The notes under the pieces were generated by a model. That model was given only the letters and a program-made list of their open reading frames with translations. It did no database searches and had not been told where the DNA came from. The translations under genes and the position numbers were made by a program. From an uncultured Gammaproteobacteria bacterium (GTDB lineage: Bacteria > Patescibacteriota > Microgenomatia > Daviesbacterales > UBA10151), in NCBI GenBank assembly GCA_964636275.1, contig CAZWRN010000005.1:1-60494 (forward strand): a stretch of 60,494 bases of DNA. The letters are read 5' to 3'. Below are positions 17,027 to 54,025 of this stretch, in pieces (position 1 is the stretch's first letter; every line of letters begins with the position of its first letter).

Positions 17027-20000
17027 ATGCAAAACAATTTAGTTGATTTTAATGCACTACAAGTACTGATTGCTTCACCAGAGCAGGTACGCTCATGGTC
17101 TTTTGGTGAGGTTACCAGACCAGAGACTATCAATTACCGAACTTTGAAAGCTGAAAAAGATGGGCTGTTTGCCGAGAATATTTTTGGTCCAACTAAAGAT
17201 TGGGAATGTTATTGCGGTAAATACAAAAGAATTCGTTATCGAGGTGTGATCTGTGATAAATGTGGTGTTGAAGTTACTCAGTCAAAAGTGCGACGAGAAA
17301 GAATGGGTCACATCACTTTGGCTACTCCAGTTGCTCATATTTGGTTTGTTAAAGGTGCTCCATCAAAACTGTCTTTGATTTTGGATTTGACTATGAAAAA
17401 CTTAGAAGCAGTTATTTACTTTGCTTCTTACCTGGTCATCTCTGTTGATGCTGATGCTAAAGCTAAAGCTATCGAATCTTTACAGAAACAACTTGATGCT
17501 AAACAAGAAGAATCCAAGAAAAACCTGGAAAAACAGATTGCTGAACTCGAAAAAACTCAAGAGGATGCCTCAAAAGAGCTAAAGAAAAAGATCACTGATA
17601 ATGAAAAGTTTGAATTAGCAGCATCTGAATCTCAGTTGCAAAGCCGAATGCAGATCGCTAAATTGCGAGAACAAAATCAAGTTGAACAGGGTCAGTTGGA
17701 AGAGATTTATAAAACAGTTACTGAGCTGGTCAAATCAATAGCTCCATCCAAGCTGATTTCTGAAGACGAATATAGTAAATTGTTTGAATACGATGTAGCC
17801 GAATTTTTGAAAGTTGGTATGGGTGCTGAAAGTTTGTTAGAAGTACTTTCTACCATTGATCTTGATAAATTGGCAGCTGATCTGCGACTTGAAGTATCTA
17901 AATCTTCTGGCCAGCGACATATCAAAGCAACTAAAAGACTTCGACTGATCGAAGGAATGAGAAGTGCTAAAGTCAATCCAGCCTGGATGATCATGAGCGT
18001 GCTTCCCGTCTTGCCACCAGATTTGCGACCAATGGTTCAATTACCTGGAGGTCGATTTGCTACCTCTGATTTGAACGATCTGTATCGACGAGTGATTAAC
18101 CGTAACAATCGATTGAAGAGACTGATCAACTTGGGTGCCCCAGAGATCATTTTGCGCAATGAAAAACGTATGTTGCAGGAAGCAGTTGATTCTTTGATCG
18201 ACACTACCAACCGCACAACTAGACGAGCAGGCACACACCAATTGCGATCTTTGTCTGAAATGTTGCGAGGAAAACAGGGCCGATTCCGACAAAACTTGTT
18301 GGGTAAGCGTGTGGATTACTCTGGTCGATCCGTTATCATCGTTGGTCCAAAACTCAAACTTCACCAAGTTGGTTTACCAAAAGAGATGGCTTTGGAGATG
18401 TTCAAACCATTTGTATTGCGGGAATTAATTTCCCGAGGTTTGGCTTCCAATGTTAAAGGAGCTAAAAATGTGCTGGAATTCCGACCACCAGAAGTTTGGG
18501 ATATTTTGGAAGAAGTTATCAAAGACCATCCAGTATTGATCAATCGTGCTCCAACTTTGCATAGATTGGGTATTCAGGCTTTCTTCCCTGTTTTGATTGA
18601 TGGAAATGCTATTCAAATCCACCCATGTATTTGTGCTGGATTTAATGCTGACTTTGATGGAGATCAGATGGCTGTTCACGTCCCATTGTCTGAAAAAGCT
18701 AAAGAAGAAGCTAAGAACTTGATGATGGCAAAAGAAAATATTTTACGACCATCAAACTCTAGTCCAATCAACGTTCCAAACCGAGAAATGGCGTTGGGTT
18801 CTTACTATGTCACTTCAGTTGATAAAACATTTGAACTTGGTGAAAAAGTTTATGGTGAGCAGGATGCAGTTTTTGCTTATCAGATGGGTGAACTAAATCT
18901 TCGAGCTCTTATTAAGGTCGCTATGAAGGGTGACGTAGTTGAAACGACTGTTGGACGAATTATCTTTAATAGTTTCCTCCCTGAACAGTTGCGATTTGTT
19001 AATGAAACTATCAACAACTCAGGAATTGCTAAGATCATCATGAAAGCTTTTAAACAGTTCCCTAAAGATGAAGTGGCGAAACTGATTGATGATATTAAAG
19101 AGTTTGGTTTCTGGGGTGCTACTATCTCAGGTTTGTCAGTTGGGATATTTGATAATAATATTATCTCGGAAAAAAGAGATTTGATCGCCAATGGTGATAA
19201 AGAGATTTTGGAGATTGAAGAAAATCTAGCCAAAGGTTTGATCACTGATGAAGAACGACGAGCCTTGGCTCAAGAGGTTTGGACCAGAGTTGGTGATGAA
19301 ATCGTGCGAAAGACAATCGCAGCTATCCCAAGTGATTCTCCAATTGAGATCATTATGAGATCTGGAGGTGCTCGTGCAACTACCGCCCAGATCGCGCAGA
19401 CTGCTGGTATGCGAGGATTCTCAGTTGATCCAACTGGTAAGATCGTAGAATTGCCTACCAAGTCTAACTACCGAGAAGGATTGGGTGTGTTTGAGTACTT
19501 TACCTCTTGTCGAGGTGCTAGAAAAGGTGTGGCTGACCGTGCTATCCGAACTGCTGATGCTGGTTATCTGACTCGAAGATTGGTTGATGTGTCTCACGAT
19601 GTCATCATTCGAATTGAAGATTGTAACACTACAAATGGGACTGTTCTGGAAGTTCCTAAAAACAATCCAGGTCAGGTATCTACTCGATTCTTGGGTCGAA
19701 AAGTGGTTGGTAAAGTAGTTGATGCTAAGACCAAAAAGACCATTATTGAAGATGGAGCATTTATTGAAGAAGCTGAAGTAGATGTGTTGGCTTCTGCTGA
19801 TGTTGAAGAGATCACTGTTCGAACTCCTTTGACTTGTGATTCTAAGTATGGACTTTGTGCAGCTTGTTACGGTTTGGATCTATCAAGTCGAAAACCAGTG
19901 GAACTTGGTACGCCAGTAGGTGTTATTGCTGCTCAAGCTATTGGTGAGCCAGGTACTCAGCTGACTATGCGTACCTTCCACTCAGGAGGTGTTGTTGGTG

Positions 20001-20719
20001 CGGATATTACACAGGGTTTGCCACGTGTTGAAGAGCTGTATGAGGCACGGGTACCAAAAGCAGTGGCCCCAATTGCTGAAATTGCAGGTAAAGTAACCAT
20101 CTCAGAAACTGAAGAAGGTACAGTAGTTCGGGTTCGCACAACATCTAAACCTCATACTGAGAGAGAATACGCTATTCCAAAAAATGCGACCTTACTGGTA
20201 AATGATGGTGACACTATCGAAGCTGGTACTCAAATAATTGGTGGTCATTTGGATATTAGAGAAGTTTTGCGAATTCAGGGGCTACGAGCAGCTCAGCGAT
20301 ATATCGTTGATGCAACTCGTGAAGTGTATGAATCTCAGGGTGTGCAGATCAACGAAAAGCATTTTGAAGTGATCGTACGAAAGATGTCTGATAAAGTTCG
20401 TGTTGAGTCACAAGGTGATACAGTATTGCTTCCAGGTGAAGTAATCAACCGAACCAAATTTGAAGAAGAAAACACTCGGATTTTGGCTGAAGGTGGTGAA
20501 CCAGCAACTGCTGCAGTGATCATCTTGGGTATTACCAGAGCTTCACTTCAGACTGAAAGCTTCTTGTCAGCTGCCTCATTCGTTGAGACAACTACAGTCC
20601 TTTCAGAGGCTGCAACTACTGGAAAGATTGATAAGTTGCTTGGATTGAAAGAAAATGTTATTATAGGACGTCTGATACCTACGAGCGAAGATAGAGCGAA
20701 GCTCAACCAAGTTGCTTAG
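17027..20719 (+). CDS. rpoC: RNA polymerase beta-prime subunit
   Basis: Zn-finger [33 protein letters not shown]. Confidence 0.99.
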
Positions 20720-20828
20720 GTATTAGATCAGACGTCCTTAACCTTGAGGTTTGTAAAAACCGAAAGGAGTTATAGGTCGACTAATTCCAACAAGTGAAGA
20801 TCGAGCAAAGCTCAATCAAGTAGCTTAA
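20661..20828 (+). other. 109-nt insert with synonymously recoded duplicate of the last 18 rpoC codons
   Basis: TTATAGG direct repeat (20661/20770); [18 protein letters not shown] encoded twice; 12-bp antisense arm. Confidence 0.9.
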
Positions 20829-20957
20829 TGGTTTAGAACACTGCAAAGTTTTTTAACTTTGTAGAGTAATCGCCTAAAAGCGATGAAGGGTTTTTTAGAA
20901 TTACTTTTGTATTCTTCAGATCCTTCATTTGCTTTCAGAAAATTAGGAAATTATAAA

Positions 20958-21380
20958 ATGCCGACGATTAATCAATTAGTTAAAAAAGGACGATCAAAAG
21001 TAGTCAAGAAAGTGAAGGCTACCGCTTTGCGACGTTCTTACAACGGATTACACCGGGTTTATAGCAGTACATCAAATCCTCAAAAACGGGGAGTTGTGAC
21101 ATTGGTTCGAACTATGACTCCAAAGAAACCTAACTCAGCTTTGCGAAAAGTGGCTAGAGTCCGACTTTCCAACCGTACTGAGGTAACAGCCTACATTCAG
21201 GGGATTGGGCATGATTTAGCTGAGCACGGTATCGTTTTAGTTCGAGGCGGACGTGTTAAAGATTTGCCAGGTGTGAAATACCATTTAGTACGAGGCAAGC
21301 TCGATTTGGGTGGAGTTCAAAAACGAACAACCTCCAGATCAAAATATGGTGCTAAAAAACCAATGGCTAAAGCAGCCTAA
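20958..21380 (+). CDS. rpsL: 30S ribosomal protein S12
   Basis: [28 protein letters not shown]; start moved to ATG 20958. Confidence 0.99.
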
Positions 21381-22276: not shown

Positions 22277-22537
22277 ATGACTAAGCCAATTGACGAAAAA
22301 TTACTCCGACAAAAGCTGGAGATGTGGACAAAAAAAGTTAACGATCTAGAAAAAGAATATGAAGTAACCATGGTTGCTCGAGGTGAAGCGGCTCGTGAAG
22401 GTGATTTGCGAGAAAATGCCGCTTATCAGATGTTGACTGAAAAAGGTGAATTCATTTCAGCTCAAATTGGAAACACTAAAAAGATTATTGTCGAATTAAA
22501 ATCCCAGCTAGGTGAAGAGTTGTCCGAAGTCGCTTAG
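22277..22537 (+). CDS. GreA/GreB N-terminal coiled-coil domain protein (no C-terminal domain)
   Basis: ARGEAAREGDLRENAAYQ matches the Gre acidic tip; only 86 aa. Confidence 0.8.
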   Translation: MTKPIDEKLLRQKLEMWTKKVNDLEKEYEVTMVARGEAAREGDLRENAAYQMLTEKGEFISAQIGNTKKIIVELKSQLGEELSEVA

Positions 22538-51790: not shown

Positions 51791-52099
51791 TCAGAAGTTA
51801 AAAGAGCGAAATTTGATCAAAATACCAGCCAGATCGGGGATTGTTAAAAATAAAATCAGTCCAAAAACAACTAAGCCGAGGACTGTTATAAAAAAACTGG
51901 TACTTTTGCTTTTACCCAGCAAAATCTCTAAACCAGAAAATATCAGTAAAACTGGCCAAAAAGGAGATAACTGCTTCCATATACTCCAAGGAATAATATT
52001 AAAGTTGTTTAGTAAAAAGATAAATCCTACGATTACTAAAAATAGCGGCCAGAAAATACTGACTGATTGTTTGGAGGAAGAATTAGTGTCTTCGGTCAT
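51791..52099 (-). CDS. DUF5668/LiaF-like small membrane protein
   Basis: LVIVGFIFLLNNF...WKQLSPFWPVLLIFSGL. Confidence 0.65.
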   Translation of the reverse strand: MTEDTNSSSKQSVSIFWPLFLVIVGFIFLLNNFNIIPWSIWKQLSPFWPVLLIFSGLEILLGKSKSTSFFITVLGLVVFGLILFLTIPDLAGILIKFRSFNF

Positions 52100-52560
52100 T
52101 TTTTTATTAAAAAGATTAGTCCGGCAATTATTAAAATGATTGGCCAGAAACGGCCAAGGTCAAGATTGTCAAAAACGCCAAAGTTTTTAAACAAAAAGAA
52201 AAACCCTGCTGAAATTATCAATACAGCCCACCAAAAGCGAGAATTTTCTTTTGATGATTTATTCAAACCCAATGTATGTGTAAATGATTTGGCGCGGTCT
52301 TTTATCTCTTCTAGATTGGACTGGACACGGCTATTTGGTTCTTTATCAATTTGAGATTTTGTTGGTATCAGCAGCCACATGACTAAATAGATTATCGCCC
52401 CAACCCCATTTAATAATGTGAGTAAAATAAAACCAATCCGAATAATAGTGGGATCAATATTGAGATATTCACCCAAACCCCCGGCAACTCCCCCAATCAT
52501 TCGATTGGCTGTTGAACGGTAAAGTTGGTTTGAAGTTGGGAGATTGGCGGCTTTTTTCAT
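52096..52560 (-). CDS. PspC-domain membrane protein with C-terminal DUF5668-like segment
   Basis: LYRSTANRMIGGVAGGLGEYLNIDPTIIR. Confidence 0.9.
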   Translation of the reverse strand: MKKAANLPTSNQLYRSTANRMIGGVAGGLGEYLNIDPTIIRIGFILLTLLNGVGAIIYLVMWLLIPTKSQIDKEPNSRVQSNLEEIKDRAKSFTHTLGLNKSSKENSRFWWAVLIISAGFFFLFKNFGVFDNLDLGRFWPIILIIAGLIFLIKK

Positions 52561-52691: not shown

Positions 52692-53810
52692 ATGAAAGAA
52701 TTTATTATTCCATTTATCATCCTATTGGTTGGTTTTGGGGCCTATTTTTTATTTATTGGTAAAGGTGTTTTTTTCTTGCCTACCAAAGAGATGGTTGCCC
52801 ACCAAAAAGCTCAACCGGCCTATTATCCGCCGGCAAGTGGTTTGCCTGCAGCAACTGTACCTCCACAGACTTTGACACTTGAGTCAATTTTTAAATCAAC
52901 CCACGTCTTACCCGTCAGGAGCGGATTACCTGTTATTACTTTGGTTGCAACTGGAGATGTGATACCAGCTAGAAGTGTCAATTATCAGGTGATCACTAGA
53001 AAAGATTTTACCTGGCCTTATTTAAAAACGGCGGACAAGCTTAAAGAAGCAGATATTACCTTTATCAACTTGGAAACTCCGCTGATCAAAAATTGCCCGG
53101 TGACTCAGGAAGGGATGAATTTTTGTGGAGATGCCAGAAATATTGAGGGGCTGATATATGCCGGAGTAGATGTAGCCAATCTGGCCAACAACCATCTTGG
53201 TAACAAAGGCAAAGCTGGAGTTGATGAGACAATAGCCGGACTGAAAAAAGCCGGAATTCAAACGACCGGTAGTGGCGACAATCTAGCTATATTAGAAGTT
53301 AGAGGGATCAAGTTTGCTTTTTTGGGATACAACGATATTGAGAAAACTCCTTTAGTGACTTCAGCCGATGAAAAATTGGTGGAAAAAGAGGTGTCAGAAG
53401 CCAAAAAGAAAGCGGATGTGGTGGTGGTGCAGTTTCACTGGGGGACAGAGTATAAAACTGAAGTTGAAGACAGGCAAAAAGCGTTGGGTAGACTAGCGAT
53501 AGATAGTGGAGCCGATCTAGTAATTGGTAATCATCCGCATTGGATAAAGCCGATTGAGCTCTACAAGGATAAATTGATCACCTATGCTCATGGTAATTTT
53601 GTCTTTGATCAGGAATGGTCACAAAAGACCAAAGAGGGAGTTGTAGGAAGATATGTTTTTATTGGCAAAAATCTGGTTGATGTGGAGTTTTTGCCGGTTG
53701 AGATCAAAGATTATGGACAACCTTATTTTCTGGAGGGTGATGCTAAGCAAAAGATTTTGGATGAGATGTATGAAGCTAGTAAACAGATGAGATCGGATGA
53801 GATCAGATAG
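52692..53810 (+). CDS. CapA/PGA_cap family metallophosphoesterase-like protein
   Basis: ATGDV, NLETP, ANNH, HWGTEY, GNHPH, HGNFVFDQ. Confidence 0.9.
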   Translation: MKEFIIPFIILLVGFGAYFLFIGKGVFFLPTKEMVAHQKAQPAYYPPASGLPAATVPPQTLTLESIFKSTHVLPVRSGLPVITLVATGDVIPARSVNYQVITRKDFTWPYLKTADKLKEADITFINLETPLIKNCPVTQEGMNFCGDARNIEGLIYAGVDVANLANNHLGNKGKAGVDETIAGLKKAGIQTTGSGDNLAILEVRGIKFAFLGYNDIEKTPLVTSADEKLVEKEVSEAKKKADVVVVQFHWGTEYKTEVEDRQKALGRLAIDSGADLVIGNHPHWIKPIELYKDKLITYAHGNFVFDQEWSQKTKEGVVGRYVFIGKNLVDVEFLPVEIKDYGQPYFLEGDAKQKILDEMYEASKQMRSDEIR

Positions 53811-53946
53811 ATCGGATGAGATCGGATAGATCGGATAGATCGGATAGATCGGATAGATCGGATAGATCGGATGAGATCAGATAGATCGGATGAGATCAGA
53901 TAGATCGGATGAGATCAGATAAATCGGATGAAATCGGATAAATCAG
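53787..53946 (+). repeat. Tandem array of 17 9/10-bp units (ATAGATCGG / ATGAGATCRG)
   Basis: Hand-parsed: eight 9-mers, six 10-mers, three degenerate units; overlaps the capA stop. Confidence 0.95.
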
Positions 53947-54025
53947 ATAAGTAAACTTGAAGCATCGCATTAGATCGGATTTATCTGTAATTGACTTCAG
54001 CTTATAAAAGTGTAATTATAGGGTT

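Follow-up and report, generated by a model that had tools for sequence, protein, structure and literature searches.

What keeps a second copy of a gene's end intact when the gene is already complete without it? The question is raised by a stretch of 60,494 nucleotides (nt) from an uncultured bacterium (contig CAZWRN010000005.1; the whole stretch is called the window below), in which the last 18 codons of rpoC, the gene for the beta' subunit of RNA polymerase, stand twice ahead of rpsL. The first copy (copy A) closes rpoC and is the tail received by beta', and the second (copy B) follows it at a distance of 49-52 nt (31-71 nt in the other species with such a duplication). Both copies encode the identical 18 residues and stop, and they are mismatched at 12 of 57 nt, all synonymous and including TAG/TAA; every one of the first seven codons after the shared TTATAGG differs. 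The silent share of the possible single substitutions in copy B is 26%, so that twelve silent differences out of twelve would arise with a chance of about 1e-7 if the copy were unconstrained. An earlier annotation made from the letters alone (the sequence-only reading) had described the positions, the shared residues, the twelve synonymous differences and the seven changed codons, and all of these were recovered as claimed.

The features of the junction are listed below in the order of their position in the window.

17027-20719, + strand: rpoC (RNA polymerase beta'), 1230 codons, with copy A and TAG at its end; taken from the open reading frame (ORF) list.
20663-20719, + strand: copy A, the translated tail, derived and recoded; the direct repeat runs from 20661 (TTATAGG).
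20665-20681, + strand: 5' arm of the first hairpin (H1), inside the (I)GRLIPT codons of copy A.
20717-20738, + strand: 3' arm of H1, consisting of TAGGT (which contains the stop codon), an internal loop ATTAG and then ATCAGACGTCCT.
20742-20767, + strand: second hairpin (H2), CCUU-GA-GGUUU-GUAA-AAACC-GA-AAGG.
20762-20769, + strand: Shine-Dalgarno (SD)-like GAAAGGAG, probable relic of the ancestral rpsL SD.
20772-20828, + strand: copy B, the second tail with TAA, with ancestral-like codons and without a canonical start codon.
20829-20957, + strand: rpsL leader, with the motif CUGG-hairpin-UUAG-AGUAAUC-hairpin-GAUGAAGG...CCUUCAU.
20958-21380, + strand: rpsL (ribosomal protein S12), protein start MPTINQL.

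Two rpoC tails and their divergence

Comparison loci and genomes are labelled L001, L104, L113 and so on. Homologs of the window's rpoC are named beta' in Candidatus Microgenomates, the closest beta' proteins carry the annotation Candidatus Microgenomates or Patescibacteria, and Pfam RNA_pol_Rpb1 domains are recorded on the same gene of strain L244. A second tail copy within 400 nt was present at 6 among the 140 distinct rpoC ends listed from the candidate phyla radiation (CPR), and when species-representative genomes (one for each species) were screened for a pair of IIGRLI-coding stretches at a spacing of 80-110 nt, only four loci came up, all of them in Microgenomates. Six further carriers were found altogether: L001, the Daviesbacteria L104 and L124, and the Curtissbacteria L105, L106 and L172, which together with the window make seven cases. 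The repeat begins at the Ile-Ile-Gly codons of a conserved motif in all seven, and the repeated unit comprises the last 16-19 codons. Copy B has the codon count of copy A and stops at the same place in each of the six intact cases, L001 being the exception with an internal 33-nt deletion in copy B. The tail peptides vary between lineages and match within each genome. Neither a metagenome scan (22 loci) nor the top protein matches added a duplicated case or a relative nearer than about 86%, and no description of the arrangement was found in the literature on rpoC and Microgenomates, nor in Rfam.

Silent and replacement codon differences between copies A and B stand at 12:0 in the window, 5:0 in L104, 10:0 in L106, about 11:2 in L105, about 12:2-3 in L124 and about 14:1 in L172, where the silent set includes a TCG/AGC serine switch. 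Silent sites are saturated in five of the six pairs (proportion of synonymous differences, pS, 0.72-1.07), with a proportion of non-synonymous differences (pN) of 0.02-0.17. Pooled over the six genomes, the two copies differ at a pS of 0.75 and a pN of 0.070, which is indistinguishable from the divergence of real rpoC between the sister species L106 and L172 (pS 0.76, pN 0.079).

These two sisters are mutually closest (88% identity over the last 207 residues) and are both duplicated, with the same junction (CTGAT followed by ATAATTGG) and alignable spacers, and they allow the displaced copy to be followed across a species split. Compared with each other, their B copies gave a pS of 0.85 and a pN of 0.055 (ratio 0.065), that is, 10 synonymous and 2 non-synonymous differences, and their A copies a pN/pS of 0.135, while the spacers (56 and 31 nt) are separated by three indels. 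If copy B had been free of constraint since before the split, about three quarters of its changes would be expected to alter the peptide; two of twelve do. Because ancestral codons, length and stop have been kept, and because nearly all changes are synonymous beside a spacer that gains indels, copy B appears to be still selected as coding sequence. Either copy B would be under purifying selection as coding sequence, then, or the duplications would be far younger than they appear, in which case copy A would have been imported. The sequence-only reading had seen in the identity of the two peptides a sign of deliberate recoding or of selection on both copies; the cross-species pN/pS favours selection, and deliberate recoding was dropped. 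Nor is copy B decaying through non-synonymous changes in L106 and L172, as that reading had envisaged for a dead relic. Retention of copy B through the hazard of B-to-A gene conversion or deletion was also considered and judged probably too weak for repeats whose uninterrupted identity is about 10 nt at most.

Codon usage points to copy A as the rewritten one. In the window the log-likelihood is -29.0 for copy A, a value under that of every 18-codon window of rpoC, and an ordinary -21.6 for copy B. Copy B fits the host's codon usage better than copy A in all five testable genomes (totals -63.8 vs -81.8), and at 32 of the 47 silent differences the commoner codon is the one in copy B. The L004 ortholog, which is unduplicated, is closer to copy B than to copy A of L104, four of the five A/B differences in L104 being A-specific relative to L004; three of the A-specific changes make a perfect 5-bp hairpin, CGGCU-AUGG-AGCCG. 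Since its codon usage is atypical and 7 of the 12 differences in the window are needed for pairing (see below), copy A is read as derived, and copy B as the conservative copy with ancestral codons, length and stop. The same had been proposed from the local codon usage of the window, with uninserted relatives named as the comparison to make, and the nearness of L104 copy B to L004 agrees with it.

Other assemblies of the same species were reached via proteins encoded near the site, where look-ups of S10, S7, a 165-amino-acid (aa) S12 and L14 matched; those of the full RpoC and a 140-aa S12 returned no record. The region from copy A through the spacer to copy B is identical in four of them, namely a contig of Joint Genome Institute dataset 3300046786 (L244) and Logan assemblies of the different runs SRR16481182, SRR12022136 and SRR8893623 (labelled L249, L253 and L254). 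Run SRR16481186 holds the species as well. Because four independent assemblies carry it unchanged, the arrangement is not an assembly artefact. L244 is a strain of roughly 98% nt identity, with 0-3% difference from the window in individual 500-nt blocks of rpoC, and no allele without the spacer was seen among the five assemblies (the window and these four).

As a separate observation, the comparison of L244 with window positions 17690-20720 is a mosaic, with 500-nt rpoC blocks that are 97.0-100% identical, and a 447-nt stretch (20600-21046) is without any difference. These uneven block identities suggest recombination between strains.

Hairpins and the origin of the spacer

The spacer is strongly structured, as had been supposed from the letters: the minimum free energy of 20655-20780 is -42.5 kcal/mol, far better than in shuffles (z = -5.0, 200 dinucleotide shuffles). 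All seven duplicated cases have z-scores of -3.1 to -6.2, compared with a mean of -1.27 in 22 unduplicated controls. The 12-nt inverted repeat of H1, AGGACGTCTGAT (20665-76) with ATCAGACGTCCT (20727-38), is perfect and was matched by 0 of 300 shuffles, and ACCTA/TAGGT lengthens the stem across the stop codon. These elements, the G.A/GNRA hairpin at 20742-67 and the SD-like GAAAGGAG are all present as the sequence-only reading had them. Paired positions hold 8 of the 12 A/B differences, and at 7 of these 8 the base of copy B would break the pair, in line with the earlier proposal that copy A goes together with the stem.

Five of the seven genomes (window, L105, L106, L124 and L172) have a collinear inverted complement of the IGRLI codons at the stop of copy A or immediately behind it, and the H1 arms are significant against shuffles (p <= 0.01) in five of seven. 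Seven H1 positions carry 2-4 Watson-Crick pair types across genomes, and all seven are synonymous sites of the IGRLI codons, either third codon positions or first positions of Arg/Leu codons. Copy A, at its silent sites, has therefore co-evolved with the non-coding arm.

H1 was also found in two unduplicated relatives, L113 (Curtissbacteria) and L135, at the same place and with compensatory changes. The spacer of L113 is GCGGACAATTATATCAGAGGAGCGTACT, followed by the ATG of rpsL (junction read ..ATCAGAGGAGCGTACT-ATG rpsL), and that of L135 is ACGACCAATTCGGAGGATTGAAAATTT, followed by ATG (..CGGAGGATTGAAAATTT-ATG). The spacers of L105 and L106 have as their 5' half the L113 motif GACAATTATATCAGAGGAG (with the rpsL ATG), and the spacer arm of L135 resembles that of L124. 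A scan with the Curtissbacteria spacer motif returned only L113, L105, L106 and chance matches. Because the unduplicated relatives have the SD of rpsL directly after H1, H1 resembles a coupling or processing hairpin placed where rpoC ends. Hairpins of this kind at gene junctions have a coding 5' arm, with stop and SD in or beside the stem. H1 likewise pairs IGRLI codons with the stop region, is followed by the rpsL SD in L113 and L135, and covaries at silent sites; a stem that joins the final stretch of the upstream ORF to the sequence at its stop codon, with a downstream SD behind it and covariation within it, is thus in place, and the coupling function itself is predicted. Unlike in known coupling hairpins, a second tail copy and a long leader part the hairpin from rpsL in the window and six other species. 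That H1 might be general to the rpoC ends of Microgenomates was rejected, as 92 unduplicated genomes had 5.25 pairs against 5.36 in shuffles (p = 0.56); it is confined to the lineages with the duplication and to a few relatives.

Six of the seven cases have H2 ahead of copy B, and several of these six show H2 pairing with the beginning of copy B; the sequence and internal loop of H2 vary among the carrier species. A conserved tandem G.A/GNRA motif was tried and rejected, since it is present in the window and L001 and was not kept in L104, L105, L106 and L172. Among homologs, covariation thus backs the structure of the sequence-only reading in the seven positions of H1, and its tandem G.A/GNRA hairpin is not conserved. 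For a MITE or repeated palindromic element, several copies at unrelated sites of a genome would be expected; within the 60-kb window no further copy of the H2 hairpin was found at up to 3 mismatches, and the exact spacer had no match in the species-representative genomes scanned. The whole window gave no Rfam match at the gathering score, and 20500-21000 gave chance-level matches only at E <= 10; no group I or II intron, self-cleaving ribozyme or curated cis-regulatory or ribosomal-protein leader was matched.

As the 3' arm and the SD make up the spacer that L113 and L135, both unduplicated, natively have between rpoC and rpsL, the spacer is read as native junction sequence (the 3' arm of H1, a second hairpin and an SD relic) and not as foreign DNA, which contradicts the earlier proposal that copy A arrived with a foreign insert. 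By analogy with these two junctions, GAAAGGAG is probably a relic of the ancestral SD of rpsL. Since H1 occurs in unduplicated relatives with the rpsL SD next to it, the most likely origin is a local duplication of the junction of the rpoC tail and the rpsL leader. The duplicated unit is best read as comprising the spacer with the rpoC tail ahead of it and perhaps the initial rpsL codons behind it; in L105, the period of 122 nt agrees with 51 + 28 + about 43.

Reading of copy B and rival explanations

Because the distance from copy A to copy B is 0, 1 or 2 modulo 3 depending on the species, read-through cannot reach copy B. The frame of copy B is open across the spacer in five of six possible cases, and a control frame in two of seven. 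L105, L106 and L124 have an ATG that overlaps the TGA stop of rpoC (ATGA) and runs in frame through the spacer into copy B, in ORFs of 42, 37 and 33 codons, respectively. Copy A ends in TGA in five of seven cases and in ATGA in four of seven, against 9/92 and 5/92 among unduplicated tails. No antisense ORF covers copy B in the window.

Our best guess, ranked first and held tentatively, is an old local duplication of the rpoC-tail/rpsL-leader junction that was retained in several Microgenomates lineages. Copy A would have become a structured translated tail, with its silent sites and stop pairing with the sequence after the stop (H1), and copy B would be translated as the end of a short relay ORF, which ribosomes would enter after termination on rpoC and which would carry them on toward the rpsL leader. 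Since the relay ORF of the window is without a canonical start, copy B may there be read inefficiently (from the SD-like motif and AUA), or its translation may have been lost only recently. A relay ORF is the sole reading with some direct support in the sequences.

Several points weigh against it. The enrichment of ATGA at the end of copy A is ambiguous, because the TGA of copy A itself lies in the 3' arm of H1, and it may be a side effect of pairing. In the window, a TAA in frame (20754-56, in the GUAA loop) stands four codons before copy B and there is no ATG, GTG or TTG, and the ATGA ORF of L172 is out of frame with copy B. Conservation is lacking in the spacer-encoded parts of the ORFs, and no candidate homolog of the relay-ORF peptide of L105 turned up in a database search. 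A relay ORF needs openness only, so that the peptide conservation of copy B is left unexplained, as is the lack of a start in the window. Selection on copy B after the duplication presupposes that the duplication of L106 and L172 goes back to their common ancestor; local alignments of the spacers to the rpsL 5' end of their own genome, of which they might be relics, were no better than shuffles (p 0.27-0.50), and only their similarity to the native spacer of relatives stands; and the sample is small, with six intact pairs of 16-19 codons from lineages of which some are mutually related.

The alternative that survives best, though we regard it as unlikely, is horizontal import, by which copy A and the hairpin arm would have come from a related lineage through homeologous or illegitimate recombination or on a miniature integrative element bringing a replacement gene end with it. 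Copy B would then be the displaced native tail that has not yet decayed, and the synonymous differences would be older than the event. This accords with an A that is atypical in codon usage beside a native-like B in every genome tested, with unduplicated orthologs that resemble B more than A, and with an A-B divergence that looks like divergence between species. Mostly silent duplications of gene ends are moreover a signature of elements integrating at 3' ends, as in the icd gene of Escherichia coli, where the prophages or islands e14 and phage 21 duplicate the 3' end of the gene and carry a replacement gene end. As at such integration sites, an upstream and mostly synonymous second end keeps the frame complete here, and both copies share a short identical core. 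Unlike at such sites, only 31-71 nt lie between the copies, without recombinase, integrase or cargo and among the flanks rpoB, rpoC, rpsL, rpsG and fusA, and what intervenes is not foreign sequence, since unduplicated members of the same clade have its 5' half as their native spacer (L113 vs L105 and L106; L135 vs L124). The displaced copy also goes on evolving as coding sequence; the sisters L106 and L172 share the duplication, and their copy B stayed coding while the spacers diverged by indels. Import is further at odds with the lineage-specific codons that copies A and B of L104 share over 38 nt, with a lineage-specific and poorly conserved tail that is identical in A and B (window, L104 and L106), and with the lack of a second hairpin copy in the 60-kb window.

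Somewhat less probable still is that copy B is conserved as RNA or DNA, being part of an rpsL leader or promoter with signals once embedded in the rpoC tail; after the duplication, copy A would have been freed from double duty and would have drifted at silent sites. Such signals would have to overlap the rpoC tail in many relatives, because rpoC and rpsL are 0-15 nt apart in them, and a conserved native leader directly follows copy B. The start of copy B has a specific pairing partner after it in L106 and L172 and before it in L105, and the Curtissbacteria junction named above (CTGAT with the sequence after it) reads as an extended -10 box. The differences between the B copies, however, fall on synonymous positions (10:2), a three-base periodicity that is unexpected of a non-coding element, the start of copy B in the window is without a significant pairing partner, and no promoter or terminator consensus was found in 20660-20830.

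We give rather little credence to frame-independent skipping of the cassette of H1 and H2 (82-123 nt, flanked by the repeated Ile-Gly codons), through bypassing or through RNA excision and religation. Copy B would then be a working alternative C-terminus of beta' and copy A a fail-safe, with the same protein made either way and both copies under purifying selection; in the window the junction would join ...GTTATTATAGG directly to TCGACTAATT. A period that varies modulo 3 would be no obstacle, copy B would need no start codon, the repeat unit coincides with the bases of H1 and H2, and the copies are equal in length and under the same constraint. Programmed translational bypassing occurs in T4 gene 60 and in the mitochondrial 'byp' elements of Magnusiomyces, and the locus is like these in that matched codons surround a structured, non-translated gap, whose length is arbitrary, and that an SD-like motif comes a little ahead of the landing site. 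The matching take-off and landing codon is the second Ile codon, which in 7/7 cases is either identical in the two copies or decoded by one and the same tRNA, the first Ile codon being lost in copy B in two. Unlike in bypassing, which is hypothetical here, the gap of 82-123 nt holds a complete in-frame tail with its stop, and the putative take-off codon is followed by GGN CGN sense codons and by no stop or unreadable codon. To our knowledge no bacterial machinery skips gaps of this size and no precedent of this form exists; Rfam holds no ribozyme or intron match, and as both outcomes give the same protein no benefit is apparent.

Least of all do we credit a young dead tandem duplication or a two-strain assembly chimera, which the 33-nt deletion in copy B of L001 and the 38 nt of identity in L104 (possibly a recent event) would suit, and against which stand five window-species assemblies that agree base for base, seven carrier species and the saturated silent sites with low pN in five of six pairs; both, including the chimera of which the sequence-only reading had warned, are largely refuted.

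Two further kinds of system offer a likeness. Diversity-generating retroelements (DGRs) are common in CPR genomes, and their template and variable repeats are also near-identical copies of a gene's 3' end within a few hundred bases and with a hairpin nearby. Unlike in DGRs, the differences here are all silent and not adenine-specific (5 of 12 at a non-A of copy B and 9 at a non-A of copy A), and the adjacent genes are rpsL, rpsG and fusA and not a reverse transcriptase. In the engineered refactoring of overlapping genes, an overlap is duplicated and one copy is synonymously recoded so that the functions are separated, which is what the locus resembles; unlike there, the arrangement is natural and occurs in uncultured bacteria of several environments and species. 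With the generic coupling hairpin excepted, a defining feature of each is missing for the integration-site, bypassing and DGR kinds. We know of no mechanism that readily explains why the displaced and seemingly unused copy B, apparently under purifying selection, still evolves like coding sequence.

The rpsL side of the junction and its significance

The leader between copy B and rpsL contains a motif in which 6 of 15 predicted pairs have compensatory changes across five species. Its sites are as follows.

20838-20925: window.
L001:3985-4080.
L104:4944-5035.
L004:3898-3990.
L081:2831-2935.

Being without an Rfam match, it is a candidate new ribosomal-protein leader. Gene callers begin S12 at an upstream ATG (20883; 165 aa) and thereby add 25 leader codons to a protein with the conserved MPTINQL start at 20958. 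The S12 of the Curtissbacteria genome L105 (about 100 nt downstream of copy B) has an unusual N-terminus (MPRRNLGVSLEINRYTYYPSGQKRGVC...) and is without the usual TINQLIRKGR...ATAL segment.

A mirror case was observed at the start of rpsL in three Microgenomates (L083:2970-3040, L092:730-800 and L124:170-310), where the first 13 nt of rpsL (ATGCCNACNATAA) are present twice, about 56 nt apart. The two copies differ silently only (CCG/CCT, ACA/ACT; CCG/CCA). The upstream copy opens an upstream ORF of 7-12 codons (MPTIS[KR]A*), and the spacer, GCA[AG]AGCTTGAAGT..., ends with a new SD and ATG before the downstream copy. A 35-nt unit is found three times at the rpsL start of L124.

The window as a whole has a low G+C content (37.7%) and carries rpoB, rpoC, rpsL, rpsG, fusA, tuf and ribosomal-protein operons. 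An 86-codon ORF between rpsG and fusA (22277-22537) has no Pfam match on record, and gene callers also report it in four further assemblies of the species (L244, L248, L250 and L251). Two repeat regions lie further downstream: three diverged copies of a unit of about 51 nt (52005-52234; 63-76% identity to the reference copy, spacing 84-95 nt) in a region with overlapping ORFs on both strands, and a 19-nt tandem-repeat array (AGATCGGATGAGATCAGAT and variants) at 53771-53948, directly after an ORF that ends at 53810.

Given the mirror-image duplication of the rpsL 5' end in three species, the rpoC-rpsL junction of Microgenomates is a hotspot. A short and apparently untranslated duplicate of part of an essential gene is expected to decay fast, and here copy B is codon-perfect across species while its partner has been rewritten for a hairpin. 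If copy B is the end of a relay ORF, the compact genomes of the CPR would add regulatory RNA between abutting essential genes with translational coupling unbroken, and the arrangement would be a natural counterpart of synthetic 'refactoring'; skipping of the cassette, if true, would be a new bacterial case of recoding or RNA processing. Either way, the junction offers a clean natural example of RNA structure shaping the silent sites of an essential gene.

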